Shown: positions 9,496-55,300, counted from the stretch's first letter. The stretch is 59,407 nucleotides of DNA from a virus (IMGVR_UViG_3300042375_000244:1-59407), one strand, 5' to 3'. The notes: generated by a model not told the origin, from the letters alone. Numbers and translations: made by a program.

Positions 9496-9508
9496 GCTGC
9501 TACCCCTG

Positions 9509-9835: not shown

Positions 9836-9836
9836 G

Positions 9837-10040
9837 TCAGGATCTCGTCATTTGTGCGTTGTCGTTCTTGTATCTGGACAGCACTCTATTCGCGTCCTCC
9901 TTCCGCACAAGGCGGCGCTCCGGCACGAAGTACACCTTGTCATGTGACAGACTCACCAGACGTGAGTCCGTGCGCTCGACTTCCTCGGGCGACTTAACAC
10001 TGACCACGGTCCTTCTGTTTGCGTGACTGACCATTATCAT
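9837..10040 (-). CDS. Hypothetical protein
   Basis: Leftward operon packing; 4-nt overlap with upstream gene. Confidence 0.55.
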   Translation of the reverse strand: MIMVSHANRRTVVSVKSPEEVERTDSRLVSLSHDKVYFVPERRLVRKEDANRVLSRYKNDNAQMTRS

Positions 10041-10414
10041 TTGCCCTCATCCCCCTGCGGCTGCGGCGGGGCGGCACGTATGACAGGGGCCAGCTTTGCC
10101 GCCATCGCCTTGATGTCCGCCTCCTCACGGTCCAACGTCGCACCCAATTCCGCGTCAGCAAACTGTCCCGCCAGCGCAAGGTAATCAATGCCGTTCAAGA
10201 CGCTGTTCAAGTTGCGGAAGCTCTTCTTCATACGCGCCATCTCGTAGCTGTGCATAAAGATCGAAGCCTCATACAGGCTCAAGCGCGTGCCAGTAATGCT
10301 CTCGAAAATCCTGCAAGCGCGGTCCATCACGTCCTCCTCCGTGCCATGCTGCTCCGAGCGTGTGCGAAGAAGTGTTGCAGATTGCGCCAAGATGTCTTTG
10401 TGATTCATACCCAT
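10037..10414 (-). CDS. DUF6378-like phage protein
   Basis: ILAQSATLLRTRSEQHG...RIFESITG...YEASIFM...ARM...IDYLALAGQ pattern. Confidence 0.65.
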   Translation of the reverse strand: MGMNHKDILAQSATLLRTRSEQHGTEEDVMDRACRIFESITGTRLSLYEASIFMHSYEMARMKKSFRNLNSVLNGIDYLALAGQFADAELGATLDREEADIKAMAAKLAPVIRAAPPQPQGDEGK

Positions 10415-10418
10415 GTTC

Positions 10419-10550
10419 CTAATCCTTCTTGATGGTGTGCTTGCAGGTTACGCATTTCCAAGTGTTGTCGTGTAGGTTGTAGACAACCGCATGGCCTCTT
10501 CTCTGGTGCATGAGGTAACACCAAAACCCTTTCAAAGCGTCGAGTATCAT
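10419..10550 (-). CDS. Small hypothetical protein (43 aa, CxxC)
   Basis: Manual translation MILDALKGFWCYLMHQRRGHAVVYNLHDNTWKCVTCKHTIKKD; exactly fills the gap, ATGA coupling. Confidence 0.55.
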   Translation of the reverse strand: MILDALKGFWCYLMHQRRGHAVVYNLHDNTWKCVTCKHTIKKD

Positions 10551-10936
10551 CTTGCGATCTCCGCTTCTATCTGACCACTGACCATTGAAAACATTCCTTG
10601 GCCCAAATTGTTTCTGTCATCGTTGAGCACGTTCAACGCCTCGCCGTCCAACAGGATCGCGCAACACGCCATGACGTGACCGAGATGATGCACGCCGCTG
10701 TCAGGCGCATACGTCTCGCCATCAAACCACGCCATCAAATGACGCATTGCTGCATCGTAATATACAGACGAACTAACAGTATGCTCGCGCCAGTTCATGC
10801 GGCCATACTTCTGTTCGCCGTCCATCATCGCGTGCGCTAAGTGTAATAGCGCAGTGGTTGGAACACATGACATTGAAGGCTTTCTTAATCCTAATACTGT
10901 CTTCGGGTTGTCGTCGGGGTAAGTATGCTCTGTCAT
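10547..10936 (-). CDS. dATP/dGTP diphosphohydrolase-domain protein (DUF5664-like)
   Basis: NPK...K..MSCVP...GEQKYGRMNWR...YYDAAMRHLMAWFDGE...DSGVHHLGHVMACCAILLD signature. Confidence 0.85.
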   Translation of the reverse strand: MTEHTYPDDNPKTVLGLRKPSMSCVPTTALLHLAHAMMDGEQKYGRMNWREHTVSSSVYYDAAMRHLMAWFDGETYAPDSGVHHLGHVMACCAILLDGEALNVLNDDRNNLGQGMFSMVSGQIEAEIAR

Positions 10937-11169
10937 TTGTGCCTGTCTCCCAAGGGTTTCTCTTCGATCACCAGCTTCGACGTACCCAAGTGAGTTCGAG
11001 GTGCTGACAGAAAACGCATACCAAACTTAATACTACGAGTTCGTATTACTTGCGCTGTCATCGTTGTATCCAACGCATCAATAACATCCTGTATCGTTCC
11101 ACCACTTCTAAATATCTTTCGAACCTTCATGATTTCTTCAGAGGTCCAATCGGGATAAGTTATTCTCAC
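10933..11169 (-). CDS. Small HTH protein, GcrA N-terminal-like
   Basis: DWTSEEIMKVRKIFRSGGTIQDVIDAL...AQVIRTRSIKFGM resembles the WT.E...G.S...IA..L HTH of GcrA. Confidence 0.5.
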   Translation of the reverse strand: MRITYPDWTSEEIMKVRKIFRSGGTIQDVIDALDTTMTAQVIRTRSIKFGMRFLSAPRTHLGTSKLVIEEKPLGDRHK

Positions 11170-11384
11170 CTTGATCTCCTTCTCTTAAATCCCCAGCGCA
11201 CGATTGCACTCATGCGGCCTTTCTCCCGGTTGCAGAAAACCATTGGGCGTATGACCAGATCTCGGTTTCTATTAATCACGCCGATGATGACATTCTTGGT
11301 TATTCCTCCCATCCGGCGCACAATATCCCGTGATGCAATGCCGTCGTTCCACAGCCGGATGATCTCAGCGTTTCTTTCGTTCAT
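11166..11384 (-). CDS. Stand-alone GcrA N-terminal domain protein
   Basis: IIRLWNDGIASRDIVRRMGGITKNVIIGVINR closely follows GcrA LW..G.SASQIA..LGGVTRNAVIGKVHR. Confidence 0.75.
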   Translation of the reverse strand: MNERNAEIIRLWNDGIASRDIVRRMGGITKNVIIGVINRNRDLVIRPMVFCNREKGRMSAIVRWGFKRRRSR

Positions 11385-11547
11385 GCCCTGTCTCCACATA
11401 GACACACGCTGTCTTGCTGCTCTTGGCGCACGACGGGCATTTTGAGGCGTTTATAGCTTTGATAACATCATCAACGTCTATCGGCATGTCTGACACGTCG
11501 TAGATCGTCCCGCACTTGCAGATCAAACGCAGCTTGTCATCGCTCAT
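11365..11547 (-). CDS. Small zinc-ribbon protein
   Basis: CKCG...CPSC; AGGAGG RBS. Confidence 0.6.
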   Translation of the reverse strand: MSDDKLRLICKCGTIYDVSDMPIDVDDVIKAINASKCPSCAKSSKTACVYVETGHERKKR

Positions 11548-11774
11548 CTGTTCCCCTCCTTCAGTGCATCCGTCGCAGTCCCCCGCATGTGGACCGCCAA
11601 CCCCCAGATCGTAGTGCGGTCAGGTATCTCCGCGCCGACTGGTGTCTCAGCAATGGAATGGAGGGCGTATTCTAAATGCTCGATGCGGTCGGCTGCGTGT
11701 TTCGTGTCGCCAATGCTGGCGCTCAATCCCGAAGCTAAATCGCGCCGCAGCCGCGTTACAAGATCGTCAGTCAT
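11544..11774 (-). CDS. Hypothetical protein (MTDDLVTRLR...AADRIEHLE type)
   Basis: GAGGAG RBS; N-terminal pattern common in alphaproteobacterial phage accessory genes. Confidence 0.7.
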   Translation of the reverse strand: MTDDLVTRLRRDLASGLSASIGDTKHAADRIEHLEYALHSIAETPVGAEIPDRTTIWGLAVHMRGTATDALKEGNR

Positions 11775-12108
11775 CTGCCGTCTCCTCAACCATTATTTTT
11801 TTTGCGCGCAAAGTTCTCGTGGAGAAAAACCCGTCATGCTCGGGGTTATTGCGCATCCACAACCGCCCATAGTATGCCCGGTAGTTGTTGTTTAACTTGT
11901 ACTCTTCACCTCGTGTCTCGATAACTGTAAACCACCGCATCCGTTCAAAGATCGCACCTACTCCAAAATTTCTCCTGTTAGCGTAAGCCGCTTCAATGGC
12001 GAACCTGCTAAACAGCGAATAAACCTTCGGGTTGATCTCGTGGAAGGTCCAAAATTGGGCCTCTAGCATGTTCTTTGGTCTGTCAGGTGTTCCAAGATCA
12101 TCGCTCAT
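11767..12108 (-). CDS. Phage hypothetical protein
   Basis: FHEINPKVY...IFERMRW...YKLNNNYRAYYGRL...FF pattern; GGAG RBS. Confidence 0.7.
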   Translation of the reverse strand: MSDDLGTPDRPKNMLEAQFWTFHEINPKVYSLFSRFAIEAAYANRRNFGVGAIFERMRWFTVIETRGEEYKLNNNYRAYYGRLWMRNNPEHDGFFSTRTLRAKKIMVEETADD

Positions 12109-12326
12109 CTACCGTCTCCCCATGCAGCATTGCACTTCACACATTCCTTGAGCGTCTTGCTCCGCAACTCATAGCCACGGGCCAGCAAAACCGTGCCGCA
12201 GTCGCACAAGCAACGCCATATGGACCCCGAGCGTTCCTGCAACGTGCGCTTGACACGCGCCCGCTCGACCACCGTCAACCGACCATAGCGGTTGCCCGTC
12301 TCGTCTTTGAATTGGGCGATGCTCAT
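12105..12326 (-). CDS. Small protein resembling the N-terminal zinc-binding domain of HNH/AP2 homing endonucleases, without nuclease domain
   Basis: KDETGNRYGRLTVVER...WRCLCDCG...L.S...C motif. Confidence 0.6.
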   Translation of the reverse strand: MSIAQFKDETGNRYGRLTVVERARVKRTLQERSGSIWRCLCDCGTVLLARGYELRSKTLKECVKCNAAWGDGR

Positions 12327-12925
12327 TCGCCCCCCTCTTTCATCTCACTGTTGGGCATGCCCCTATAAAAGTTGCGCCTCGGGCTGGGCTTATCCCTCCG
12401 ATAGAACATCCGATTGTAATGCTCTTGGCAGTAAGCCTTCTGATGATCGCGCACCGTTTCCGACGCGTCCAAGCCACAGTAAATCCGGAAGCCGTCGTTC
12501 GTGACAGATTCCAAAGGGTAATGGCACTCGTCATACCCAAGGTTCAGCACAGTCTTGGCCTTGGCGTTCTTCGAGAAACAAAACGCAGAGGATTGCAGAT
12601 ATGCAGAATCGGACGCCGCTGGTGGGGTGGTCGCCGCCGCAGGAGGAACCGGACGCACGAAAGCCCCCTCCCCATTTCGTGCGGGCTCTTGCTTTACACG
12701 CCGCCCCTTGCGGGCCAGAGCTGGATTACGGATCGTGGCCCGCAGGTCCCCCTGCAACCGCGCCCGCATTACAATGCCGATCACCTTGTTGCGGGTAATG
12801 TTGAACTCAGCCGCAATCTCGGTGCTCGTGTACAACGGACCATGGAACCCTGACCACATATTCAGGACGCGACCACGCATGTCCTCGTATTCCGCGTCCT
12901 TGCCAGTATTCTTCAGCTCAGGCAT
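12323..12925 (-). CDS. gcrA: GcrA cell-cycle regulator homolog
   Basis: N-terminal TSTEIAAEFNITRNKVIGIVMR; Pro/Ala linker; C-terminal VLNLGYDECHYPL...YCG...AYCQEH, matching the two-domain GcrA layout. Confidence 0.85.
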   Translation of the reverse strand: MPELKNTGKDAEYEDMRGRVLNMWSGFHGPLYTSTEIAAEFNITRNKVIGIVMRARLQGDLRATIRNPALARKGRRVKQEPARNGEGAFVRPVPPAAATTPPAASDSAYLQSSAFCFSKNAKAKTVLNLGYDECHYPLESVTNDGFRIYCGLDASETVRDHQKAYCQEHYNRMFYRRDKPSPRRNFYRGMPNSEMKEGGE

Positions 12926-13328
12926 GGCCGATCTCCTCCACGTTTGGATAAACGTACCGCCCCTTGCCATCGTCCGCGCCAAGCGTCTCTAAATACAAAG
13001 TCGCCATCATCTTCACGAACTCCGGAAGCTTCTCCCACTCGCTGCCTTGAGCCTTCCAAATCGCACAGAGCTGCTCAACCATCGCTATCGTGGCCGCGTT
13101 CATAATCACAATTCGCTGGCCGTTCTTGCTCTTCGCGCCAACAATGTCCGGGTTCTCGTCCAGAAACTGAACGACCTTTTGCATCGTTCCAGCGACCACG
13201 GCACAAATAATCGACGTCGAATGTTCCATAGGCGTCATGTTGGACGGGCGCTCCCCAATGAAGGCGATCTCTATTTCAACCGAAACCACCGGGTCAGACT
13301 GGAAGTCGGCTTCTTTGTTAGTGACCAT
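12918..13328 (-). CDS. Hypothetical protein
   Basis: Leftward operon packing; 136 aa. Confidence 0.6.
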   Translation of the reverse strand: MVTNKEADFQSDPVVSVEIEIAFIGERPSNMTPMEHSTSIICAVVAGTMQKVVQFLDENPDIVGAKSKNGQRIVIMNAATIAMVEQLCAIWKAQGSEWEKLPEFVKMMATLYLETLGADDGKGRYVYPNVEEIGHA

Positions 13329-13752
13329 GGCTCACTGTCCTTGTGTTGCAATAAGGCTTCTGCTTTAGCTTCGACCGGACGCCCGCAGGCTCAAACCGGG
13401 CAAACTCACCACGCGAATAGCGCGGGCAGTCCAAGGCCTTCCCCATCGAAACCATCGAGGCGTTCAAGGAGCGGCTGTCAGAGGTGTAACAATGCGCCAC
13501 AGGGCGTCCGTGGGAGGGGTCGCCTACTGGGAAGCACCTGACGGCTAGGGAGTTCTTGAGGAGCAGGCGTAGGGCGTCCCTAGCCGCCTTGCCGTTGGGT
13601 TCGTCCATCTCCTCGGCGTCGATGCCGTACAGGCGCACGCTTCGTCCTGCAAAATAGAGGGTGTCGCCGTCGTAGGCGGTCGGGTAGCCCTCTATCGCAG
13701 CCGGGGTGCCGTACAGGCTTGCACACAGACCAAGGACCATTGTGCAGAACAT
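13318..13752 (-). CDS. Thermonuclease (SNase-like) with hydrophobic N-terminus
   Basis: YDGDT...VRLYGIDAEE...DPSHGRPVAHC...LNASMVSMGKA motifs. Confidence 0.85.
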   Translation of the reverse strand: MFCTMVLGLCASLYGTPAAIEGYPTAYDGDTLYFAGRSVRLYGIDAEEMDEPNGKAARDALRLLLKNSLAVRCFPVGDPSHGRPVAHCYTSDSRSLNASMVSMGKALDCPRYSRGEFARFEPAGVRSKLKQKPYCNTRTVSHGH

Positions 13753-13985
13753 CAGAGTTCTCCGGTGTCAGAGTCGCGACGACCGAACGCTGACCACGCG
13801 TCGTGCCCGTCCTCCCGCCAGTCGAAGGCAGTGTCGTCCATCTCGTTGGCTACAGCTTCAGCTTGTTCGAGGGCAGCATCCACGTCAGAAGCTGACACCA
13901 TCAACACATGCTGGAGCCTGACGGTACGCTCAACCACGATTGCAAAGACAGGGGTGGACTTAGAGGCTTTGGGCTTGGTCGCCAT
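13752..13985 (-). CDS. Hypothetical protein
   Basis: Start MATKPK behind GAGG; VSASDVDAALEQA pattern. Confidence 0.6.
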   Translation of the reverse strand: MATKPKASKSTPVFAIVVERTVRLQHVLMVSASDVDAALEQAEAVANEMDDTAFDWREDGHDAWSAFGRRDSDTGEL

Positions 13986-14254
13986 TACGCGTTCCTCTTC
14001 GTGAACAACAAGACAGGCTTGGTGTCGTCGTGACGGTGCAGGGTAATCAGGTCCTCGTCGTGGATTACATGCCACGGGGCAGGGGAGGCGGGTCTGCTGT
14101 CCGGATTCTCAACAAGACAGTTCTCAAGGACGCGAACTATGTCGGCGCGGCCACACGCCCGCGCACTGAACAAAACCATCAGGGCGGCGGCTACGTCGGC
14201 TAGTTCGGAGGAGGAGAGGTGATCGATCTCCCCTTTTTTGGTTTCGAAGTCCAT
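13985..14254 (-). CDS. Hypothetical protein, first gene of leftward accessory operon
   Basis: AAAGGG RBS; TAATG coupling to next gene. Confidence 0.6.
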   Translation of the reverse strand: MDFETKKGEIDHLSSSELADVAAALMVLFSARACGRADIVRVLENCLVENPDSRPASPAPWHVIHDEDLITLHRHDDTKPVLLFTKRNA

Positions 14255-14403
14255 GGTCCACTGCCCTTTCTAAGTCGGTGGTTCGGATCGGTTGCCGTAT
14301 TACGGCTATATGAAGATAAGCACAGTCTCAAGGGCAACGCAAGGGGGTTTGGAGGGTTTTTCAGGGGGAGGGGCTTCGGTGGGGGTTGCTATAAGGGGAA
14401 AAC

Positions 14404-14557
14404 ATATATTGAAAATATAGTCTGTAAGTGTCTGAGTATACGGATATAGTTGGAATAACGTCATGCGCGAAAAAAAAAAAAAAAAAAAACGCTCCCCGGC
14501 CCAATATTTCACTATATCCGTATACTCAATGACTTACAGACTATATCGCCAATATAT
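14404..14557. repeat. AT-rich long inverted repeat flanking an A20 tract (candidate origin or packaging site)
   Basis: 14415-14450 and 14511-14546 are reverse complements at 33/36 positions, extendable with ATATATT; A-tract 14470-14489 between them. Confidence 0.85.
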
Positions 14558-14736
14558 ATAGTGGGCTTAGGCAAAGTGGGGCGCGCGGCCTGAAAGCGGG
14601 CTTGGGCGTGGCGCTAGACTAACTTTTGTGGAATAAAAGGTGCCTGTTTCTTAGGCATGTGCTGTCAGGCTTGCGTTCGTCGAGCTGTCAACGTATGTTG
14701 ATACCTCGATTTTGAACGGACCCCGGAGGTGTAAGC

Positions 14737-15435
14737 TTGGCTTCGTCAGACCCGAAACGACGCATCCCGATCACGGCCCTAAGGGTCATGGGTGAGCGGG
14801 CTTATGGACTAACGGCAAAGCAGGAGACCTTCTGCTTGAACTATGCCGCTGGCAATATCACGCAGACGGAGGCGGCGCGCCGGGCTGGGTTTTCGAACCC
14901 GGCTTTTGCTGCGTCACGGTTTCTGAACGGGCGCGACTACCCTCACGTCCTGCGCCGGATTGTGGAGCTGAAGCACGAGCTGTCACGCCGGTTCGAAGTG
15001 ACCTTTGAGAACCATGTAAAGAAGCTGGCAGAGATGCGAGACATGGCCTTGGCTGACAAGAACTACTCTGCTGCCATCGCGGCAGAGAAGAACCGTGGTC
15101 AGGTGGCCGGGCTGTATATCGCACGGCACGAGATCATGATCGGCAAGATCGACCAGATGAGCCGCGAGGAGGTGCTGGCCGAGATTGAGAAGCTGCATCA
15201 GGAATACCCTGCTCTCGCGGCAAACCCAGCACCCAAGCAAGACCTGTCACTGATCGAGGATGTAACCTTTGAAGAAGTCCTTGAACCCGTCCCCGATGAG
15301 GTTGGACATGAGCCGGACCGCCAAGAGCCTGAGTACCGAGGCCGGACTTTGGAAGAGCCTCCAAACCGCGACGACGAAGATGGTCCATTGGACGAGGATC
15401 GAAGCCCGCGTAGGCGCTGGCATCCCCGACCTTAA
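14737..15435 (+). CDS. terS: Terminase small subunit
   Basis: LTAKQETFCLNY...TQTEAARRAGFS HTH; AAIAAEKNRGQVAGLYI; start uncertain (TTG 14737 or ATG 14788). Confidence 0.8.
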   Translation: MASSDPKRRIPITALRVMGERAYGLTAKQETFCLNYAAGNITQTEAARRAGFSNPAFAASRFLNGRDYPHVLRRIVELKHELSRRFEVTFENHVKKLAEMRDMALADKNYSAAIAAEKNRGQVAGLYIARHEIMIGKIDQMSREEVLAEIEKLHQEYPALAANPAPKQDLSLIEDVTFEEVLEPVPDEVGHEPDRQEPEYRGRTLEEPPNRDDEDGPLDEDRSPRRRWHPRP

Positions 15436-15739
15436 CGGCGCGATGACGGACCTTGAGTTCTGGCTGGAGCTGAAGGTCGTAAAAACTGTCAGCTTCAAGA
15501 CCGAGGGCTTGTGGAGACCCGCACAGGTGGCGTGGCAGATGAAGCGCGCCGCATCCACGCCTGACAGGATCTGGAATCTTGTCAGCCACCCGGCGGGCCA
15601 GTCTGTCAGATTGTACCGGGGCGACAAGGTGATGAATCTAAACCGTGGGATGGACGCGGTGACGGACTTTGAAACGCACCTTCCTCCGAACTGGTTCGCG
15701 ATGTTGGATTTCATCCGGAGGCGTAATGACAAAACGTAA
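15308..15739 (+). CDS. PD-(D/E)XK nuclease, Holliday junction resolvase/VRR-NUC-like
   Basis: EAGLW...TRIE...GIPDL...FWLELKV...PAQVAW motifs. Confidence 0.75.
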   Translation: MSRTAKSLSTEAGLWKSLQTATTKMVHWTRIEARVGAGIPDLNGAMTDLEFWLELKVVKTVSFKTEGLWRPAQVAWQMKRAASTPDRIWNLVSHPAGQSVRLYRGDKVMNLNRGMDAVTDFETHLPPNWFAMLDFIRRRNDKT

Positions 15740-16106
15740 CCCTGTCAGCTTTAGCATAGCTGTGCCGCAAGATTTTTATGATTTCATGAACGTGGCAATC
15801 ATCCACGCAAGGCAGACCCGCAACATCAAGATCTCAAGGCGGCGCGTCTGTCTGGCGTCAGGTCTGTCACACGCGACCCTGTTTGAAGCGGAAAAGCGCC
15901 AGCGCGACCTGTCTTTTGGAACGATCATACGATGCTGCACGGTGCTGGGATACGAACTCAAACTTGTCAGGTTGCCGCCGCCACGCGCGATTGCGGAATA
16001 TGACGAGGCAATCCGAGAGCGGCCCGGCGCGCGCAAGAAAAAGCCGACCGGAGGCGTGAACTTTTTCAAAAAGAAAAACACCGCACCTCCGGAAGAGGCG
16101 CGGTGA
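15726..16106 (+). CDS. XRE-like HTH DNA-binding protein
   Basis: ISRRRVCLASGLSHATLFEAEKRQRDLSFGTIIRCCTVLGYEL; basic tail. Confidence 0.65.
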   Translation: MTKRNPVSFSIAVPQDFYDFMNVAIIHARQTRNIKISRRRVCLASGLSHATLFEAEKRQRDLSFGTIIRCCTVLGYELKLVRLPPPRAIAEYDEAIRERPGARKKKPTGGVNFFKKKNTAPPEEAR

Positions 16107-16172
16107 CGGTCGGTTTCCAGTGAAAGGGCGCGGTGACGGTCGATTCCTAAGGGCGCGGTGACGGTCGATTCC
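16097..16172. repeat. Three direct copies of a ~22-bp unit GGGCGCGGTGACGGTCGATTCC
   Basis: Copies at 16097-16118, 16126-16147 and 16151-16172, where two transcription units converge. Confidence 0.85.
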
Positions 16173-16362
16173 CAGAGGGCAGGCTATGGCGAAGGTGAAG
16201 CTCGGCCTCGCGCGCGTCCGCGTGAAAGGCCAGCGTGCCGGAGGGCGTCAGGCTGCGCCATTGCTGGCGCGTCGGGGAGTAGGCGAACCAACCTAGTGCG
16301 TCGCCGTTGTCGGCTGTTACGATGCTCGGTTCTTGGTCGCCGTTGTGTGCGTTCTCGTCCAT
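16147..16362 (-). CDS. Small hypothetical protein (putative early)
   Basis: MDENAHNGD start behind the repeated CAGGAGACCTATCCCATG leader. Confidence 0.65.
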   Translation of the reverse strand: MDENAHNGDQEPSIVTADNGDALGWFAYSPTRQQWRSLTPSGTLAFHADAREAELHLRHSLPSGNRPSPRP

Positions 16363-16622
16363 GGGATAGGTCTCCTGCGCCTTCGGCGCGTTAGTAGGGG
16401 TGGGCGCGTTGCTCAGGCTTCGCACGTGTCCCACGGTGCGCCGCAGGCCTCCGCAAGCTCGTTGTTTGCGTCAAGGGTGCGTATCCGTTCAAGCAAAGCT
16501 TCGCGGAGCATTTCGGACGTAACGTCCGAAGCGTCCTCGCGATCCGTCTCCAATGAGAAAGCAAGTTCGAAAGCGTGGTTGAAGCGGGCCATGGGATAGG
16601 TCTCCTGCGCCTCTGGCGCGTT
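16359..16622 (-). repeat. Duplicated ~34-bp RBS leader upstream of two small genes
   Basis: CCATGGGATAGGTCTCCTGCGCCTnnGGCGCGTT at 16359-16392 and 16589-16622. Confidence 0.85.
16413..16592 (-). CDS. Small acidic hypothetical protein (59 aa, putative early)
   Basis: Not in ORF track; manual translation MARFNHAFELAFSLETDREDASDVTSEMLREALLERIRTLDANNELAEACGAPWDTCEA behind AGGAG. Confidence 0.7.
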   Translation of the reverse strand: MARFNHAFELAFSLETDREDASDVTSEMLREALLERIRTLDANNELAEACGAPWDTCEA

Positions 16623-16671
16623 GTCTGGGGGTGTGGGTGCGCCCGACGATTGCCGGGCGCTGGTGGGCTTC

Positions 16672-17598
16672 CTAGGCGGCCTCCTGAACGGGCGCGCCGC
16701 CGTGTTCCTTGAGCATGGTTTCCAGCCACAAGGCGGGGTTCTTGATCGTTGCGTCGTCCATATGCGCCGCGCCGATATAAAGGCTGGCGGCTGCGTCGGG
16801 GATTGCGCGGGCTAGGATTGCGTGCGCGTGCGCGCGGATTGCGTCTTGGCCTCCCCTGTACGGCCAGTGTAGATTTTGCGTGTCTACTGGCGCGCCCGTG
16901 ACTTCATAGGCTGCGCCATAGTATAGGCTCCGCGCCGTGCTGGTGTGGCATAGCATGTGCGCTGCGCGGGCAAGGTCCAGCGGGGCGGTGTCCATACGCG
17001 TGAATATGTGACAGGCGTCATGGCGTCGCTGGTCCCGCAGATGTCCCGCCGTTACGCTGACGCCAACATATAGCGAGACCGGGCGGGCGGCTGACAGAAG
17101 GCGCACGAGCGCCAAGATTGCGGCGCCTCGCTTTTCAAGGTCAACGCTGTCGATGCCTGCGCTGCTGGCAATGTCCACAATGATTGCGAGCGGTGCTTGG
17201 TCGCTGCTGATGCGCTGACGCTGACGCATTGCCAGCGGGTGGCCTGCCAGTGCTGCCGGGACGCACGGGACGCCCCCGGCGACTGCTGCAACCGTGCGCC
17301 AGCGCCGCGAGACTAGGTGCAAGGCCTCGAAGCGGGTCAAAAACTCATCGGAGCGCGCGACAATGGCGGGGTTTCCCTCGCGGAGGCAGCGCATGCTGGC
17401 GTCGAATGACAGCCCGCCGCGCCACGCGTCGCCCTTGTCCGAACGGGCGGGGCGCGCCTTGTTGACGCTCTTGAAAAGCGTCGCCGTCTGCGTCATGTCG
17501 CCAATGGCGTATGTGTCGAGCGTCGTCTTGCATCCATCGCGCGCCGCTATGGCGTCGATTGCAGGAAGCGTGAACTTGTGCATCTTAGACCCCCTCAA
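16672..17598 (-). CDS. VWA-like partner of MoxR AAA ATPase
   Basis: VPAALAGHPLAM then LAIIVDIASSAG (MIDAS-like) and RGAAILALVRLL; adjacent to the AAA gene; true start may be the MHKF Met. Confidence 0.65.
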   Translation of the reverse strand: MRGSKMHKFTLPAIDAIAARDGCKTTLDTYAIGDMTQTATLFKSVNKARPARSDKGDAWRGGLSFDASMRCLREGNPAIVARSDEFLTRFEALHLVSRRWRTVAAVAGGVPCVPAALAGHPLAMRQRQRISSDQAPLAIIVDIASSAGIDSVDLEKRGAAILALVRLLSAARPVSLYVGVSVTAGHLRDQRRHDACHIFTRMDTAPLDLARAAHMLCHTSTARSLYYGAAYEVTGAPVDTQNLHWPYRGGQDAIRAHAHAILARAIPDAAASLYIGAAHMDDATIKNPALWLETMLKEHGGAPVQEAA

Positions 17599-18976
17599 TC
17601 ATGCGGCGCTGGTCGGCGCTCAACCCGGCGAGATAGGTTAAGTCGGCTGCTTCGTCGCTCGTAAAGCCCGCAGCGATAAGTGCCGCGCCCGCTTGCATCT
17701 GGCGCAAGTCAATCAGATGCTTGAGACCCACGGCGCGGGCGCGCTCGCGTGCTGCTTGTACGCGCCGCGCAAATGCCGCATCGCCAGAGATTGCAACCTC
17801 CAGCGCCGGGTCTGCATCCCACTGGAGCTTGACCGGAAAGCGTGACAGAAAAGCAGCGTCGAGGCGATTGCGCCCGACAAAATCAGCCGTCGCGCCTGTC
17901 CCGTGCGTGTTACCTGCGCCGATGATGACGCAATCCCGATGCCGCGCGACCATACCATCAGGAAAGCCCGCATATCCGTTCGCGAGCGCCGCGTTGAGCG
18001 CCAGCGTTACGCCTGCATCCCAGCTATCAAGCTCATCAAGGATAACCAGCCCGCCCTTTTCAAACGCATCCCGGAAAGGCGTCCGATGTGTCCGTCCGTG
18101 CGCGTCCGTAAAGCCCAAAAGCTCATGCGACATGCTCATCGCGCCGTGCGCGTAGTACTCCAGCCCAAGCGCGCTCGCTACCTGATGCGCCGCGTGGGTC
18201 TTGCCGGTGCCGGTCGGCCCGACTAACATCGCGTTTGGCGTATAGCCTGAGGTCATACGCGACGAGCATGTGCGGAGTAGGCGCGCAAGCTGCGGGTGCG
18301 TGTGTCCCTCGGTTTTGCCGGTTGTGCCGTCGTGCCGGGCAACCTCGATCCGGACGGTCTGCACGTTCTCAAGGCGGCGCTCGACGATGCGCGTAATCTC
18401 GGGCGCCAGCGCGCCGAGGATGTGCGGCAACACCATCGCGCCAAGTGCTGCGCCTGCCGGGTCGGCGGCTGTCACGGCTGCATCTGGCACGACTGCCGGA
18501 GGCGTCGTGGTCGTGGTCGTGGCCGTCTGCGCCTGTCCTGTTTTCGCGGCGCGTGCCGCCTGTCCCTGTTCGGTGGCGCGTATTAGGCACATATACTGCG
18601 CCGACGTTGCCGCGCCGTTTTGTTTGTTTTGAACCGTGTCAATTATGCTGTCACATTTGACGTTCTCCGCGCCGTCCCATGGCAGGAAGGAGCGGATCTC
18701 TCTGTAACCTTCAACGGCTGCGGCAAATGTCGCCGCGTCTATGTTGCGTTCCTTCATGTTGTCCTCCTGCGTTGTGGTGTTGCTCGCCTCTGCTGCTGCG
18801 AGCACGGCGTAGATGTCAATTCCAAGAGCCTTGCAGGCTGCAATGCACTCTGTCGTGCCAAGGCTGCTGGCGTCCAATCCGTGTTCGCGCCGGTAGGCGG
18901 TCCAGCCGTGGTGGCTGGTGATCGCCCGGCGCACGATTGATCGGCGCGCTACTCCTAAAATAATCTGGTCGCTCAT
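17585..18976 (-). CDS. MoxR/CobS-type AAA+ ATPase
   Basis: LVGPTGTGKT, VILDELD, LNAALANG, IIGAGNT, GRNRLDAAFLSRF. Confidence 0.88.
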   Translation of the reverse strand: MSDQIILGVARRSIVRRAITSHHGWTAYRREHGLDASSLGTTECIAACKALGIDIYAVLAAAEASNTTTQEDNMKERNIDAATFAAAVEGYREIRSFLPWDGAENVKCDSIIDTVQNKQNGAATSAQYMCLIRATEQGQAARAAKTGQAQTATTTTTTPPAVVPDAAVTAADPAGAALGAMVLPHILGALAPEITRIVERRLENVQTVRIEVARHDGTTGKTEGHTHPQLARLLRTCSSRMTSGYTPNAMLVGPTGTGKTHAAHQVASALGLEYYAHGAMSMSHELLGFTDAHGRTHRTPFRDAFEKGGLVILDELDSWDAGVTLALNAALANGYAGFPDGMVARHRDCVIIGAGNTHGTGATADFVGRNRLDAAFLSRFPVKLQWDADPALEVAISGDAAFARRVQAARERARAVGLKHLIDLRQMQAGAALIAAGFTSDEAADLTYLAGLSADQRRMIEGV

Positions 18977-19008
18977 GACTTACCCTTTCTCGGCTTAGTC
19001 TACGGTTC

Positions 19009-19038
19009 ATCCTATTTCAGCGCCGCGTCGGCTGTCAA
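19009..19038 (-). promoter_or_regulatory. Sigma70-type promoter for the AAA/VWA cassette
   Basis: TTGACA-18 nt-TAGGAT, about 30 nt upstream of AAAGGG RBS and ATG 18976. Confidence 0.65.
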
Positions 19039-19190
19039 CCAAATTGGATGCTGATTTTTAAAAATGTTGGTCAGCATCACTGACCTAACTAACTCCCAGC
19101 CCCGCCCCCTCATCTCCGAACCAAATCCACCAGGTCAGTCCACCTGGTCGCCGGTCCAAGATCCCCTCACCATTGCGCCCGGTCCGTGAT

Positions 19191-19355
19191 CTGTCAGCCG
19201 GTAATCTGACAAAAGCCCCACGATTATCTGACACCGATCTGTCAGCCGGCAAACTGTCAGCGTCTTGTCACCGGCCCACGCCCCCTGCTGTTCTGTCAGT
19301 GGTCGATGATCGACGGAGGCTGTCAGGCTGTCAGCGGCTGTCAGGCGGCTGTCAC
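19191..19355. repeat. Array of 11 TGWCA pseudo-palindromic motifs, most as CTGTCAG
   Basis: TGTCA at 19192, 19240, 19255, 19266, 19294, 19321, 19329, 19339, 19350; TGACA at 19207, 19229. Confidence 0.85.
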
Positions 19356-19386
19356 GGGTCCCTTGCCCCTTGACCTCTGCCCATGG

Positions 19387-19402
19387 TGTAACGTTATAAC
19401 AT
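19387..19402. promoter_or_regulatory. Zur/Fur-family-like operator
   Basis: TGTAACGTTATAACAT; reverse complement ATGTTATAACGTTACA resembles alphaproteobacterial Zur boxes as recalled. Confidence 0.35.
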
Positions 19403-19608
19403 AGGCGACCCCCCTAAACGGGGCGCGTCGCGCACGGACGCACATATATCACTGTTTGTCTCGCTAAATCAGCAACTTCCAGAGGTCCATGGTCCAGGTA
19501 CAGTTTACTCCGGTTTTCCAAACCCCCACCCAACCACCTCTGCAAACCTCACCCCCGTAAACCAAACAAACCCCTCAAGGGACCCTACCCCCACCCCCAT
19601 CAAAAAAA

Positions 19609-19624
19609 TGTTTCACGTGAAACA
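19609..19624. promoter_or_regulatory. parS: Perfect chromosomal-type parS site
   Basis: TGTTTCACGTGAAACA, exact 16-bp consensus palindrome, extending to 18 bp (19608-19625). Confidence 0.85.
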
Positions 19625-19743
19625 TCGGACGGTGGTCAAATCTGCGGGATCTTTTTGCAATCACCATCCTGCTCTGCCCACGGCCCTCTAACCTTTACTT
19701 CTTAACCTTTTGTAAGTAGAACAAAGGTTCACGGAGATCTCTC

Positions 19744-21210
19744 ATGTCTGCATTGGAATTACTGCCTGATGAGGCTGCCAAGCGGTACGCGCAGCTTTTG
19801 GACCGTGCTGTTAAGATGACGAAGCAGGAGACGGCGCGGGAGAGCTTTATTGATTACGTGAAGTACGTGTGGCCGGGATTTGTGGCCGGGCGGCATCATA
19901 AGATTGTTGCTGACAAGCTGGAGCGTGTGGCTCGTGGCGAGTTAAAGCGTTTGATTATCAACATGCCGCCAAGGCATACGAAGTCTGAGTTTGCGAGCTT
20001 TTTGTTTCCCTCGTGGTTCATTGGGCGGATGCCGACGAAGAAGATCATGCAGGCGACGCATACTGCGGATTTGTCGGTTCGGTTTGGCCGCAAGGTCAGG
20101 AACCTGATGGACGGCGAGGACTACCATCAGGTGTTCCCGCAGGTGAAGTTGAGGGCGGACAGTAAGGCTGCTTATCGGTGGGAGACGGACGACGGCGGCG
20201 AGTATTACGCGGCGGGTGTTGGGTCGAACATTGCGGGTCGCGGCGCTGATTTGTTCATTGTGGACGACCCGCACTCGGAGCAGGACGCGCTATCGCCGAC
20301 GGCTTTGGATGCGGCGTGGGACTGGTATATGTCGGGACCTCGGCAGCGGTTGCAGCCGGGCGGGGCGATTGTTGTGGTTATGACTCGTTGGGGCGACAAG
20401 GACCTGACGGCGCGTTTGCTCAAGCAGCAGGCGACGGACCCGAAGGCTGACCAGTGGGAGATAGTCGAGTTTCCGGCGATCTTGGACTCTGGCAGATCTC
20501 TGTGGCCGGAGTATTGGAAGCTGGAGGAGTTGGAGAAGATCCGTGCGTCCATCAGTTCGTCGAAGTGGCAAGCGCAGTATATGCAGCAGCCGACTTCTGA
20601 CACGGCGGCGATTATCAAGCGGGACTGGTGGCAGATTTGGGAACCGGAGAAGGTGCCGCGTTTACAGTATGTTATGCAGTCTTACGATACGGCGTACCTG
20701 AAAACACGGACCTCTGACTTTACGGCGATACAGACGTGGGGTGTGTTTTACCCGAAGGAGGACTCGGGGCCGAACGTGATTCTTTTGGACGCTAGGAAAG
20801 GCCGGTGGGAGTTTCCTGAGCTGAAGCGGATTGCGTATGAAGAGTACAAGTATTGGGAGCCTGACACGATTTTGATTGAGGCGAAGGCTGCGGGTATGCC
20901 TCTGACGCAGGAGCTGCGGCAGATGGGAATACCTGTCGTGAACTTCTCGCCAAGCAGGGGCAACGACAAGCACGCGCGTGTTAATGCTGTAGCGCCTATG
21001 TTTGAGTCTGGTTTAGTGTGGAGGCCGGACGCTTCGTGGGCGGAGGAGGTCGTAGAGGAAATCGCGGCCTTCCCGTTTGCCGATCATGATGATATGGTCG
21101 ATTGTGCTACGCAGGCTTTGATGCGGTTCCGGCAGGGCGGGTTTGTGTCCCATCCTGATGATTACCAGATGGACGACGAACCACGGTCCACCAACAGGGT
21201 ATACTACTGA
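19744..21210 (+). CDS. terL: Terminase large subunit
   Basis: INMPPRHTKSE, GRGADLFIVDDPH, VVMTRW, QSYDTA, HDDMVD motifs. Confidence 0.95.
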   Translation: MSALELLPDEAAKRYAQLLDRAVKMTKQETARESFIDYVKYVWPGFVAGRHHKIVADKLERVARGELKRLIINMPPRHTKSEFASFLFPSWFIGRMPTKKIMQATHTADLSVRFGRKVRNLMDGEDYHQVFPQVKLRADSKAAYRWETDDGGEYYAAGVGSNIAGRGADLFIVDDPHSEQDALSPTALDAAWDWYMSGPRQRLQPGGAIVVVMTRWGDKDLTARLLKQQATDPKADQWEIVEFPAILDSGRSLWPEYWKLEELEKIRASISSSKWQAQYMQQPTSDTAAIIKRDWWQIWEPEKVPRLQYVMQSYDTAYLKTRTSDFTAIQTWGVFYPKEDSGPNVILLDARKGRWEFPELKRIAYEEYKYWEPDTILIEAKAAGMPLTQELRQMGIPVVNFSPSRGNDKHARVNAVAPMFESGLVWRPDASWAEEVVEEIAAFPFADHDDMVDCATQALMRFRQGGFVSHPDDYQMDDEPRSTNRVYY

Positions 21211-23660
21211 TGGCATCTCCCTATTCCGGAATTGAACAAGCCCTTCCCAACAATCCCTCACCCATGGACGAAGGTCCGGGGATGGAGGTCGAGGTTCCAG
21301 AGGAAGAGGGCTTTGAGACAGAAGAGGATGTAACGATTGAGGAAGACGACGAGGGTGGCGCTACAGTCATATTTGGACGTGACATCGAGTCTCTGGACAT
21401 ATCGTCGCTGGGCTTTGGAGATAACCTTGCGGAAGTCCTTGATGACACGGAGCTTTCAACAATCAGCAAGGACCTTTGCTCTTCGATTGAAGAGGATGAC
21501 GCGGGCCGCGAGGATTGGAAGAAGGCGTATGAAGAGGGGCTTACGCTCCTTGGTCTCACGTATGAGGACCGCACGGAACCATTTAACGGTTCTACTGGTG
21601 TCGTTCATCCCCTTCTTAACGAGGCTGTAACGCAGTTTCAGGCTCAGGCCTACAAGGAGATGTTGCCTGCGGGCGGTCCTGTGCGGACGCAGATTGCTGG
21701 GAATACGACGCCTGAGAAAGAGCAGCAGGCGGAGCGCATCAAGGCCTACATGAACTACCAGATTACGGTGGAGATGGAGGAGTACGACCCCGAGTTTGAC
21801 CAGATGCTGTTTTATCTGGGGTATGGCGGGTCCGCGTTTAAGAAGGTTTACTACGACGGGGAATTGCAGCGGGCGGTGTCGCCCTACATTCTGCCAAAGG
21901 ATTTGATTGTTCCGTATGCTTCTAGAGATTTAGGGACGGCGGAGCGTGTAACTCATGTATTGCGTGTTTCGGAGAACAACCTGCGTAAGCAGCAGGTGTC
22001 AGGGTTTTACCGGGACGTGGAGTTGAGTGTCCCGACGGAGACCGAGCGCGATCAGATTGAGGAAAAGACTGACAGCATTTCTGGCATCGAGCCATCCGGC
22101 GAGCCTGACAACTATCTGTTGTACGAGTGCCATTGCTCGTTGGATATACCGGGCTTTGAGGACAAGGACGAGAACGGTGAGCCGACAGGTATCCAGCTAC
22201 CGTATATCGTCACGCTGGATGCGACGAGCGGGACGGTTTTGTCCATCCGCCGGAACTTCAAGGAGGCTGATCCCAAGCGGAAGAAGAAGTCGTACTTCGT
22301 CCACTACAAGATGCTGCCGGGGATGGGGTTCTATGGCTTTGGGTTGGTGCACCTTTTGGGCAATCTCGCCCGCTCTTCGACCTCTGTCCTCCGCCAACTG
22401 ATTGACGCTGGCACGCTGGCGAATATCCCGGCGGGGTTCAAGGCCAAGGGGATGCGTATTCAGGACGCCGAAAGCCCGATCCAGCCCGGCGAGTGGCGGG
22501 ATGTGGATGCACCGGGCGGCGCGCTGCGCGATAACTTGATGCCGCTGCCATACAAAGAGCCGAGTGCAACGCTGATGCAATTGCTTGGGTTCTGCGTGAC
22601 AGCAGGCGAGAAGTTTATCGGCTCAACTGATTTGGGCATGGGTGACGGCAATCAGGAACTCCCGGTCGGGACGACGATTGCGTTGCTGGAGCGTGGTAGC
22701 CGTGTGATGAGCGCGGTCCACAAGCGGATGCACTACGCCCAGAAGCAAGAGCTTCGGTTGCTGGCGGATGTGTTTGCGGAATACATGCCGCCGGAATACC
22801 CGTACTCGGTCGAAGGTCAGAAGCCTAGCATCAAGCGTCAAGATTTTGACGGTCGGGTGGACGTGATTCCTGTCAGCGACCCGAACATCTTCAGCATGAC
22901 GCAGCGGATTGCCTTGGCCCAGCAACAACTGACCTTGGCCCAAGCTGCGCCTCAGATGCACAACACGTATGAGGCGTATCGCCGGATGTATACGGCGCTG
23001 GGCGTGCATGACATTAACCTGATTCTGCCGCCGCCGCCTGAGCCGCAACCGGAAGGTCCGGCTTTGGAAAACGCACGGTCGATGGTGGTGCCGAACGGGG
23101 CTCCGAGTTTGCGGGCGTTTCAGCAGCAGGATCATCTGGCGCACATCGACGCGCATATTGCATTTATCAAGACGCCGTTGATCCAGTCATCGCCGCAGGT
23201 GTACGGGATTTTGCTGGGCCATGTGTTCGAGCATGTGTCGTTTGCAGCTATGCAGACGGTGATGAGCCAGATGCAACAGCTTATGCAGCCGCAGATGGAC
23301 CCATCAACGGGCATGATGACGCCCCCTGACCCGCCACCGCCGGAGATGATCCAGAGCAACGCGGCCAAACTTGAGGCTGCGATGGTCAATCAGATCATGG
23401 CAGCGATTGCTCCGCCTCCGGCTGATGGCGCGAACAACCCGCTTATCGAACTCCAGAAACGCGACTTGGACATCAAGGAGCGCAAGATGGAGGCGGAAGA
23501 AGAGGAGACTGTGCTCAAGATCGACCTTGAAGAGCGCAAGATGGAGATGAAGGCCAAGATGGACGAGGAGCGTCGTCAGTCAAATGAGGACATCGCCCAG
23601 CTCCGGGCGAATGTGTCGCTTGAGCGCGCCAACCTGTCTAACATTGGGAAGGGCTTCTGA
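21210..23660 (+). CDS. Portal protein
   Basis: 816 aa directly after terL; HPLL.EAV.QFQ, GSAFKKVYYD, GFYGFGL motifs; coiled-coil C-terminus. Confidence 0.9.
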   Translation: MASPYSGIEQALPNNPSPMDEGPGMEVEVPEEEGFETEEDVTIEEDDEGGATVIFGRDIESLDISSLGFGDNLAEVLDDTELSTISKDLCSSIEEDDAGREDWKKAYEEGLTLLGLTYEDRTEPFNGSTGVVHPLLNEAVTQFQAQAYKEMLPAGGPVRTQIAGNTTPEKEQQAERIKAYMNYQITVEMEEYDPEFDQMLFYLGYGGSAFKKVYYDGELQRAVSPYILPKDLIVPYASRDLGTAERVTHVLRVSENNLRKQQVSGFYRDVELSVPTETERDQIEEKTDSISGIEPSGEPDNYLLYECHCSLDIPGFEDKDENGEPTGIQLPYIVTLDATSGTVLSIRRNFKEADPKRKKKSYFVHYKMLPGMGFYGFGLVHLLGNLARSSTSVLRQLIDAGTLANIPAGFKAKGMRIQDAESPIQPGEWRDVDAPGGALRDNLMPLPYKEPSATLMQLLGFCVTAGEKFIGSTDLGMGDGNQELPVGTTIALLERGSRVMSAVHKRMHYAQKQELRLLADVFAEYMPPEYPYSVEGQKPSIKRQDFDGRVDVIPVSDPNIFSMTQRIALAQQQLTLAQAAPQMHNTYEAYRRMYTALGVHDINLILPPPPEPQPEGPALENARSMVVPNGAPSLRAFQQQDHLAHIDAHIAFIKTPLIQSSPQVYGILLGHVFEHVSFAAMQTVMSQMQQLMQPQMDPSTGMMTPPDPPPPEMIQSNAAKLEAAMVNQIMAAIAPPPADGANNPLIELQKRDLDIKERKMEAEEEETVLKIDLEERKMEMKAKMDEERRQSNEDIAQLRANVSLERANLSNIGKGF

Positions 23661-52381: not shown

Positions 52382-55300
52382 ATGCCGGTCTATGAAGTCC
52401 AAGCGCCCAACGGTACTATTTTGCAAATCGAGGGGCCGGAGGGGGCTTCGGAAGAGTCCATTCTGTCGTATGCTGAGAAGGTAGCGTACCCGGCCTTCCT
52501 TGCTGGAAAGAAGAAGCCTGAGCCCCAGCAGTCCTTCCTCCGACAGGTGGCCGACATCCCTCTTCAGATTGGAAAGGGTGCGGCCTCTGACGTTCGTAGT
52601 GTTATAGACACCTTTGGTCCGGGCAAAACCGTATCTGAAGGCGCGAGGAGCGTAGAAGCCTATGCTCAAGAGCTTTTATCGGCACAATCCCGCAAGGATT
52701 CCGCTGAGATAGCCCGCATTATGGACGAGGCTAAGGACGAGGGTATCCTTGAGAACGTGGTTGCTGCGGCACGAGCTTTCAGCGTTGCTCCCTTGGATTT
52801 GATCGCTCAAGGTGTGGGCTCAACGATTCCCAGACTTGCCTTGGCTAGAGTTGCGGGACCATACGGGATTGCTGCTCTGGGGGCCTATGGAGCGGCTTCA
52901 GGGGCAGGAACCATCAAGGGCGCCATCTTCGAAGAGACGAAGAAGGAACTTATGGGCCGGGGCGTTTCGGAAGACGTTGCAACAGGATTGGCGCAGAAAG
53001 CTGCGGCCTACGACGGGGAGAACCTCGGCCAGATTCTAATTGGCACAGGCCTTGGCGTGGTGGCCGGTGTTACCGGAGCAGAGCGGATTATTAATAACGC
53101 TCTCCGAAGGATAGGTGGTGCGGCAGCGCGCCGCCAAGTTGGAAGCACGTTTGGAGAAGGGTCCACAGAAGTTGGCCGTGGTGTGTTTGCCCGCACGGCC
53201 CTTGGCGTTGCTGGAGAAGCACCGCTTGAAGCACTGCAAGGCGGGCAAGAACAGCTTGCAAAGAATTTAGCAATTCAACAGGAAGGGTTTGACCGTCCGA
53301 CATTCCAAGGCGTTGCTGGATCGGCAGCATTGGATGCCATTGTCGGCGGCGCAATCGGTGGAACAGCCGGTGCAGCCTTCGGTCGTCGCCCGGACGTAAT
53401 TCCTCCTGTTGTTTCCCCTGGCAGTCCCGGAGCGGAGACTCCCCCTCCTGCAATCCCCCCTGCGGCTCCGGGGCTGCCTACTGCTGTTCCTGCTGGTGCG
53501 CCTCCGGGCGCGGCGGTTGCGGCTGCTGCGGCAAGCCCGCTTCAGACAGACCAATCTATCCAGAATATAGCGGCGGCACAGACCGGCGCAGTAGTTCCGT
53601 CTTCGGGACCTCTCAAGCGTTCGCAAACGGGCGCTCCTGTTCTGGCCCAAGGCGCTACAAATGTAGTAGACCCACAGCTTGTTACTTCGGCTGCGCAAAA
53701 GCTCCCGCTTTTTGGGCAGGGAACTATCGGGAGGGCGTTTGCTGGACAGACGGATGTTGGACAGACGCTTGATCCATCCACACGGCCTCTCGCGCTGGGT
53801 GTGCTTCCGCGCGATCTTGCAGGAGCGAGGCCACGCTATAAAACAACTCCGCTTGAGTTTGCAGATGGTGTCACTCAGGCGCTTTTCATCACCGCTCCGA
53901 GGAAGGACGGGAAAAAGTCAGATCGTGACGCCGACTACCGCAAGTGGTTGGAGAGCCAAGGATACAGTCCCTCGGAAATAGACCTACGCGGAAAAGAAGT
54001 CCGCAACTACATCGGGAGCCTTGTTAAAAAAGCGCCCGGCGTAAGTTTGCTTCCTGTCCCTACCTTCCCGAAGGTTGCTGCTCGCGCGGCTCAACAACCT
54101 GTGGCGGTTGCTGGACAGGTTGCTGGACAGGTTGCTGGACAGGTTGCTGATCCTTCGGGTCGTGTCACCACAACAATAGCTGATGGCTTGGGACCTCGTT
54201 ATGGCATGGAGCCGGGAGCTGCGGCACCTGCGGCACTTGCGCCCGCCGTGGCGGCACCTGCTCCTTCGACCACGGACCTTGGACCAGCGTCCGCGCGCAC
54301 GCCCGAGCCGCTCCGTGTGAAGACGATCAAGACAGGTGTCCCTTCGACCCCCGAGATCGAGGTTGCTCCGCAGATTGTCGAGCTTTCAGACATCATCTCT
54401 TCGGAGATCCCCGGATACGACCCGACTTTGCAACCGCGTGACAGGACGAGGATCGGATCTGACATCCAGATCGCGGACATCATCGCGAAGTTTGACCCCC
54501 AACTTCTGACCTTTGACCTCAGCACCAAGCGCGGTGCGCCTATCGTTAACCAGAACCTGAACGTTGAAAGCGGTAACGGGCGCATCATGGCCCTGCGCCG
54601 CATTTATGAGTCTCGTCCAGAACTGGCAGAGGCCTACAAGAACGAGCTTTCTCGTCTTGGTTTTGACGTTTCTGGGATGAAAAACCCCGTCCTCATTCAA
54701 CGTCGTATAACGCCCCTCACCCCAGAGGAAACCCAGCAGTACCTCGGCACAGCAAACACCCCCGACGTTATGCCAATGAGTGCTTTGGAGAACGCAAAGC
54801 AAGATGCCAAGAGAATCTCGCCTGAGATGCTCGACCTCATCCCGGAGGACCGCGACTACACATATCCTGAGTTTGTGCGTGAGTTTTTGCGTCGTCTGCC
54901 TGCGACCGACCTCAATGATATGTTAACCAATGAAGGTGAGTTGACCCCTGACGGTGAGCGCCGTGTACGGAACGCCGTGTTTGCAAAAGCTTTTGGAGAT
55001 CCGCAGGCTGTCGCCCGCATTGCGGAGTCAACCGACGACAATATCCGGTCGATCTCGAACGCACTCATTGATAACATCGTCAACTTTGCAAAAGTTCGCA
55101 TAGCTGTTGACGAAGGCAATATAGACCCCGGCTTCTCGACGGAGCCTCTCGTTGACGCGATCAACCGAATTTCGCGTATGCGGTCTACGGGAACGTCGCT
55201 TGAGAGATACATCTCGCAGGTAGACGCCTTCAATCCTCTGCCGCCGATGACAGAGAAGTTTATGCGCCTGTTCTATAGCGAAAAGGCGCGGGCTCTCGGA

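Follow-up and report, generated by a model that had tools for sequence, protein, structure and literature searches.

Why does a phage that encodes no recognisable partition proteins carry, just upstream of its large terminase gene, what looks like the centromere of a bacterial chromosome? The window analysed here, by which we mean the whole 59407-bp stretch of viral DNA, contains the 18-bp perfect palindrome ATGTTTCACGTGAAACAT at 19608-19625, enclosing the 16-mer TGTTTCACGTGAAACA at 19609-19624. The consensus of parS, the site read by the chromosomal partition protein ParB, is TGTTNCACGTGAAACA, and the 16-mer agrees with it at 16 of 16 positions, as a chromosomal-type parS should. The same exact 16-mer also adjoins parB in marine alphaproteobacterial chromosomes. 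On comparative sequence evidence, we consider it probable that the palindrome mimics the host centromere and that host ParB loads on it.

The palindrome and the genome around it

The record represents a complete virus of 59407 bp (rated 100% complete) with a G+C content of about 56% and 122-bp direct terminal repeats (1-122 and 59286-59407). The features on which the argument draws are as follows.

19609..19624, no strand: 16-bp host-type parS TGTTTCACGTGAAACA; with the flanking A and T it makes up the 18-bp palindrome 19608-19625
18977..19743, no strand: gap of 767 bp between divergent operons, containing the site (from the ORF list)
19032..19354, plus strand: nine same-strand CTGTCA words, with four tandem GGCTGTCA at 19318-19354
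19744..21210, plus strand: terL, first gene of the packaging/structural operon (Terminase_6C/6N; phrog_38, E 1e-112)
21210..23660, plus strand: portal protein, SU10-type (Pfam and PHROGs)
17585..18976, minus strand: AAA_5-type ATPase, heading the leftward operon that borders the gap (Pfam and PHROGs)
14737..15435, plus strand: small-terminase-like gene, 4.2 kb from the site (Terminase_2, E 1e-5; phrog_51, E 5.8e-13)
12323..12982, minus strand: GcrA-like cell-cycle regulator homologue (PF07750, E 3.4e-12)
10547-10936, minus strand: N-terminal domain of a dATP/dGTP diphosphohydrolase (PF18909, E 3e-27)
54350..54706, plus strand: ddrB-ParB superfamily domain in a 2250-aa protein (52382-59134)

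The other genes recognised by Pfam and PHROGs among the 68 ORFs encode a primase, a UvrD-type helicase, a family A DNA polymerase, adaptors, a lysozyme and tail proteins; many ORFs have no assigned function, and a tRNA scan of the window found none. The PF18909-type family is linked to phages with modified DNA bases. Judged by TerL, the closest cultured phages are Pelagibacter phage HTVC027P (61% identity), 023Pt_psg01, DSL-LC04 and Pelagibacter phage HTVC023P, and a megablast search of 18000-22000 against cultured phages gave no match. The gene order from the start of the record is common to the window and the linear HTVC027P record. A length of 122 bp is not a usual assembler k-mer overlap; since the repeats bound a record that starts at the same gene block as linear HTVC027P, they may be real physical ends.

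The exact parS match described in the first-pass annotation is thus present in the sequence, and so is its setting, non-coding DNA said to lie about 120 bp upstream of terL: the palindrome ends 118 bp before the terL ATG (19744), and no ORF of at least 40 aa overlaps it. The only ORF of at least 60 aa in the gap (19173-19373, 66 aa) has no family match in Pfam or PHROGs, and an Rfam search of 18800-19900 returned nothing at gathering score, its one lncRNA match being at chance level (E 0.86). A second parS match, with up to 3 mismatches allowed, was found nowhere in the 59407-bp record, nor was a half-site array.

The statement that the phage lacks ParA, an HTH-containing ParB and an integrase is likewise upheld. 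None of the three was found in Pfam and PHROGs scans of the 68 ORFs, and a six-frame search for ParB_N, HTH_ParB, AAA_31 and the tyrosine-integrase family Phage_integrase, run over the full record, was negative where control genomes were positive; serine recombinase families were absent from the Pfam scans of the 68 ORFs. The sole qualification is the ddrB-ParB domain of the 2250-aa protein, which has no parS-reading HTH. This domain was considered as a partner of parS and dropped: it was not found in four cultured relatives nor in the parS-bearing contig of locus L241, so that its presence does not co-vary with the site and nothing ties the two together. The 2250-aa protein is probably virion-borne. 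The setting of the site is also not that of a chromosomal centromere, which lies near parAB and the cellular origin, the record being a complete phage without parA or parB.

A palindrome in a leader region could also act as RNA or single-stranded DNA, either by forming a hairpin in the leader of terL or by weakly terminating leftward transcription. A stem of 7-8 bp can form (-10.9 and -11.8 kcal/mol in 45-nt contexts, z-scores -1.5 and -2.0), and on the minus strand the palindrome is followed by a run of seven T. However, the terminator scan does not list it, 10-15 of 200 shuffles fold as well, the adjacent T-run is not conserved in relatives, and both neighbouring genes point away from the site, with no gene transcribed towards it. 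Moreover, a hairpin would allow compensatory changes, yet the sequence holds to parS. We find this reading barely credible.

About 270 bp to the left of parS lies the CTGTCA/GGCTGTCA array. The window holds 12 copies of GGCTGTCA against 2.3 expected, a count reached in 0 of 100 shuffles, and the array is retained in the four nearest contigs (L002, L304, L305 and L347) despite only about 68% identity of the surrounding DNA. By its sequence it resembles iterons, and thus looks like a candidate origin or regulator array beside a centromere-like site.

The first-pass annotation had called an exact 16-mer very unlikely by chance in a sequence of this size. Taken for the window by itself the estimate is sound, with 7.9e-6 exact matches expected from base composition and 4.1e-4 with at most one mismatch. 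Nevertheless, some 250,000 windows were scanned, and a few exact chance matches are expected over a scan of that size; therefore the window alone cannot exclude chance. What excludes it is the recurrence of the site in relatives.

Recurrence of the site in diverged relatives

At least 137 stretches of viral contigs contain the exact 16-mer. When 62 proteins of the window were compared with these by tblastn, 14 loci matched, 11 of them with matches that included TerL. In seven loci with TerL 46-63% identical to that of the window (L092, L109, L119, L122, L143, L184 and L216), parS lies 37-151 bp upstream of terL; in the sister clade (TerL about 62% identical) the exact site recurs 37-157 bp upstream of this gene. 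In L146 and L238 the order is parS, terS, terL. Two loci with a far more distant TerL (L105 and L145, 26-29% identical) each have five exact parS copies spread over about 770-910 bp upstream of terL.

To lower ascertainment bias, the sister clade was resampled by TerL similarity, a sample that is still seeded with parS-bearing sequences. The exact site is present in 17 of the 80 resampled loci, against about 1e-4 expected, and in 11 of 74 after removal of the six contigs known from the parS scan. For the 66 loci with at least 250 bp of upstream sequence, the number with a site in the last 250 bp before the terL start is 12 for exact matches, 14 when one mismatch is allowed and 15 when two are; in three further loci of the clade the site comes just after terL. 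Two more exact sites came from a sample of 80 genome-contig loci, the first 49 bp before terL and the second 1.8 kb beyond it. The near-matches are mostly natural parS forms, namely TGTTCCACGTGGAACA, which is changed symmetrically in both half-sites, TGTTCCACGTGAAACA, and changes of the outermost base; the two-mismatch match of L358 is not such a form. Between sub-lineages the flanks are unrelated, and the 16-mer itself is retained.

The 200 bp upstream of terL in L224-L268 contain motifs resembling GGGCCATGTTTCTCACAAATA and TTAACTGTCTTATAAT, and the palindrome GGGGCCCC immediately precedes the start codon of terL. The position of parS varies among these conserved promoter-like elements of the sister clade.

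The site is nonetheless missing from most of the family. No site with at most two mismatches was found in 79 of 80 viral loci retrieved with the TerL query, in 51 of 54 metagenome loci, in 77 of 80 genome-contig loci and in about three quarters of the sister clade. A TerL tree (a quick IQ-TREE search on 57 distinct rows) requires at least two gains or losses of the site, with the pair that includes the window nested among eight site-less rows. Since most members of the family do without it, the site must be dispensable, as would be expected of an accessory element for recruiting a host factor but not of a pac site or an essential operator.

This pattern bears directly on the idea that the reader of the site is encoded by the phage, the palindrome being an operator or a terminase pac site that merely resembles parS. 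The site does stand at the head of the packaging module, in L146 and L238 immediately before terS and terL, and the numerous phage ORFs of unassigned function leave room for such a reader. However, a phage-specific site would be expected to co-vary with the phage, whereas one and the same 16-mer accompanies TerL proteins that are 26-63% identical; most close relatives lack it although they have terS and terL in common; and the window has no further copy or half-site array. As regards packaging, the terminal repeats and the gene order shared with HTVC027P hint at physical ends far from the site. We therefore judge a phage-encoded reader highly improbable. Neither ParB_N nor HTH_ParB was detected in four longer family contigs that carry parS, for which completeness is rated at 42-84%. 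As the phage has no ParB, the preferred reading is that the site is read by the ParB of the host.

Among the cultured relatives, HTVC027P (MN698241.1) carries CGTTTCACGTGAAACA, a 15/16 match to parS, at 16412-16427 between gp31 and gp32, 4 kb from terL. This phage is described as obligately lytic, with a latent period of about 18 h (PMC12753301), and in the transcriptome reported there gp30, gp33 and gp34, near the site, belong to two "extra" temporal clusters. With its near-perfect site and published infection time courses, HTVC027P on Pelagibacter HTCC1062 offers a direct test system.

Two alleles in the lineage of the window

The TerL query against viral sequences yielded 80 loci, of which only L002 (TerL 99.8% identical) has a site with at most two mismatches; L029 has a three-mismatch match to parS. 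The metagenome scan gave 54 loci, three of which (L304, L305 and L347; TerL 99-100%) share with L002 a one-base variant and represent at least two flank haplotypes. All four of these contigs of the lineage read TGTTTCATGTGAAACA, with T at 19616. On the other hand, contigs from three further sequencing runs match the window at every position of the site (X3 over 19601-19842, X4 over 19588-20392 and X6 over 19537-19749). Thus both alleles exist in nature.

Within this lineage the site shows no measurable constraint: the window and L002 differ at 1 of 18 positions of the palindrome, and they are 97.1% identical in terL and 90-96.6% identical in the flanking gap, so that one change in 18 bp matches the local divergence. 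The eight next relatives on the tree, with TerL 75-78% identical, have no site, and coding DNA lies directly upstream of their terL. The first-pass annotation had named absence from relatives as a finding that would speak against its proposal, and the outcome is divided: relatives at this distance have no site, the four nearest contigs keep it apart from one central base, and in a separate clade it is exact.

A sample of 401 genomes from the class to which the Pelagibacteraceae genome described below belongs has TGTTTCATGTGAAACA in 40 and a reversed control pattern in 1; forms with A or G at the variable position were likewise found in 1 of the 401. Ten genomes with TGTTTCATGTGAAACA were inspected over 17-kb regions (15 kb in one case, at a contig end). 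In eight of the ten a parB homologue is no more than about 5 kb from the word, usually at 1-5 kb, and in five of those eight the word is paired, with the copies 2-3 kb apart. The consensus parS is absent from the inspected region in seven of these eight. Five of these genomes are small (1.6-2.1 Mb) and have 48-55% G+C, against about 56% in the window. The places of parS with the central T include G229:C3:170295-175105 (locus L466), and one genome of 1.4 Mb and 31% G+C has six copies around parB. Judged by sequence and by position beside parB, both alleles of the phage lineage are natural chromosomal centromere words.

These observations have to be weighed against a neutral origin, in which the palindrome is a chance match or a piece acquired by recombination, without function in the lineage of the window. 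Such a passenger would accumulate changes at about the local neutral rate, as the single substitution does; the imperfect allele is the commoner one, found in four of the five assembled contigs of the lineage; the next relatives have no site; and the whole scan should produce several exact matches by chance. Against this, 15 of the 16 positions are unchanged across all five contigs and at least two haplotypes, and the sole variable position toggles between two chromosomal centromere alleles, a restriction to exactly these words that is unexpected for a neutral relic. In addition, the same site occurs at the same place in a second clade, at about 1e5-fold above expectation. We consider a neutral passenger very unlikely.

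Host partition machinery and its possible use by the phage

All or part of the window was found in at least 24 sequencing runs, from lake water, freshwater and one drinking-water metagenome, with no RNA run among those listed. The GcrA-like gene hints, by homology, at an alphaproteobacterial host; the nearest Atlas clusters of its product are GcrA clusters with mostly viral members. A DNA search of window positions 1-20000 against ten genomes that use the T allele gave no match. MAGs of many phyla into which family contigs had been binned were rejected as hosts, the assignments being read as mis-binning. Four marine alphaproteobacterial genomes with family contigs in their assemblies, a Pelagibacteraceae single-cell genome and MAGs of Pelagibacter, Rhodobacteraceae and Maricaulis, all have one ParB and 1-2 parS words each, either exact or changed only in the outermost base; in the three with both on one contig, site and parB are about 2-4 kb apart. 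The first-pass annotation had illustrated its proposal with Caulobacter, where ParB binds polar PopZ and MipZ. This part finds no support: the nearest cultured relatives are HTVC023P-type Pelagibacter phages, and the runs come from the waters named above. Its central proposal, loading of host ParB, is in agreement with the comparative evidence, that is, the recurrence of the site, its restriction to chromosomal variants, the phage contigs without ParB, and the presence of ParB together with the same word in the bacterial genomes.

In the preferred reading, a dimer of host ParB would recognise the palindrome, form a CTP-dependent clamp and, as it does on chromosomes, spread into a few kb of adjoining DNA. 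Both the gap that separates the divergent operons and the first part of the packaging operon would then be coated. ParB is reported to link parS to ParA and Smc and to require CTP (PMC8494293, PMC7053999). Should ParB load in this way, three consequences can be envisaged. The leading one, which we would place just short of an even prospect, is that unpackaged phage DNA is hitched to host segregation and positioning through ParA, SMC or the pole. Phage DNA hitched in this manner would be kept and inherited in cells with a stalled infection, a non-sporulating counterpart of the phi29/Spo0J system discussed below.

The second consequence, offered tentatively, is that ParB beside terL gates the packaging operon. 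In its full form, a ParB complex 40-160 bp upstream of terL would restrain the packaging/structural operon until the multiplying parS copies dilute ParB, and would thereby serve as a copy-number timer. The bias of place agrees with this (15 of 66 sister-clade loci within 250 bp upstream of terL, and the three just after it), as do several loci with the site between a TATAAT-like element and the start codon, the mere 1-2 chromosomal sites in each of the four genomes searched, and the repression of parS-adjacent promoters by ParB reported for Pseudomonas aeruginosa (PMC5521831). However, the distance and order of the site relative to promoter-like motifs vary among relatives, and in most of them the same operon runs without a site. 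In the window, a search of the plus strand from the site to terL found no sigma-70-like promoter, and the site of HTVC027P is remote from terL. The gap upstream of terL may also simply be the largest room available for a non-coding element. As an account of the site in its own right, local gating seems to us unlikely.

The third consequence, rather doubtful even if ParB loads, is that ParB is sequestered by the replicating phage DNA, which upsets segregation or division in the host. Put as a complete explanation, tens to hundreds of phage copies would outcompete the 1-2 sites of the host and derail segregation or division, so that the infected cell stays undivided. The low number of chromosomal sites, located beside parB in the four genomes searched, makes such competition easy to picture; the phage also carries a GcrA-like cell-cycle regulator, and a single site per genome suffices as a sink. 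Yet a sink leaves the preference for the region upstream of terL unexplained. The usual doubling time of such hosts exceeds 18 h; with the latent period of HTVC027P thus shorter than host doubling, blocking division may gain the phage little. We regard titration as quite unlikely to be the explanation of the site.

A broader and more speculative proposal, which we would not expect to hold, is that centromere mimicry is a widespread phage strategy matched to the host allele, with the ParB-CTP clamp sensing copy number or cell cycle to time packaging. The choice between CACGTG and CATGTG would then track the chromosomal parS allele of the host and act as a determinant of fitness or host range, and the recurrent position of the site at the start of the packaging operon would reflect use of the clamp as a sensor of phage copy number or host cell-cycle state. 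The two natural chromosomal alleles found in the lineage lead to a definite prediction, namely that the allele of the phage matches that of its host.

Host-type parS on a phage has a precedent. The virulent Bacillus phages phi29 and Nf, like the window, have host-type parS without partition genes of their own, and phi29, with five parS sites, is reported to use host Spo0J, the partition protein helping to move the phage genome (PMC2731898). The window resembles this system in its lack of ParA, ParB and integrase, in the presence of a host-type parS in all five contigs of the lineage (with one base variable) and in the recurrence of the site in a second clade. It differs in having one site, 19.6 kb from the ends of the record, in contrast to the five sites of phi29, for which the demonstrated use is spore entrapment (PMC2731898), and in belonging to an unrelated family of 59-kb podophages with known hosts in SAR11, phi29 being of a different family and host type.

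SAR11 cells, the cultured hosts of this phage family, do not sporulate, and therefore the pay-off must differ from that of phi29. We know of no virulent phage other than phi29 for which use of host ParB has been shown, and there it serves spore entry. In comparison with chromosomal ParABS, the phage has the same 16-bp word as the parS next to parB in the four marine alphaproteobacterial genomes; there the centromere lies near parAB and the origin, whereas here it lies on a phage without ParA or ParB. Plasmid prophages such as P1, N15 and those of some mycobacteriophages are temperate and have their own ParA/ParB beside an element-specific parS. Their cassettes also include a centromere-like site, but the window has no parA-parB of its own and carries the universal chromosomal word.

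Thus the kind of system is already known from phi29. New here are the phage family (aquatic podophages with cultured hosts in SAR11), the repeated placement upstream of terL, the cultured member with a near-perfect site and the pattern of two alleles. In the openly accessible literature searched, we found no host-type parS described for lytic phages of Gram-negative bacteria, pelagiphage-like or other, and the term "ParB" is absent from the main texts of PMC9599517 and PMC12753301, the main papers on the HTVC023P/HTVC027P group. Podophages of this type are described as widespread and among the most abundant pelagiphages (PMC9599517). If ParB does load, 16 bp would give lytic phages a cheap route into the segregation, SMC-loading and cell-cycle machinery of their hosts, with a bearing on the persistence of stalled infections in slow-growing aquatic bacteria.

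The orphan host-type parS is thus placed in HTVC023P/HTVC027P-type podophages and, in addition, in phi29-like, microvirus and other viral contigs without adjacent parAB. In 79 viral loci with parS, none of the 179 flanking ORFs matched ParA or ParB families. Among the neighbours in these loci are the phi29-type packaging ATPase (Podovirus_Gp16; 8 loci), protein-primed polymerase (DNA_pol_B_2; 5 loci), terminases (7 loci) and microvirus genes (2 loci). By a crude ORF caller, the first parS falls inside an ORF of at least 70 aa in 42 of the 79 loci, and hence the non-coding location seen in the window does not generalise. Individual contigs with an exact parS and no adjacent ParA/ParB include the microvirus-like L090 and L118, L142 with a T7-type portal, and L137, where the site is beside an AAA_5 ATPase. 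Finally, a BLAST search of the palindrome against cultured phages gave 281 records among the matches listed, several with multiple places per record; candidate parS-like matches are found in podophages of Clostridium perfringens, in Microbacterium, Gordonia and Listeria phages, and in Roseobacter phage DSS3P8.
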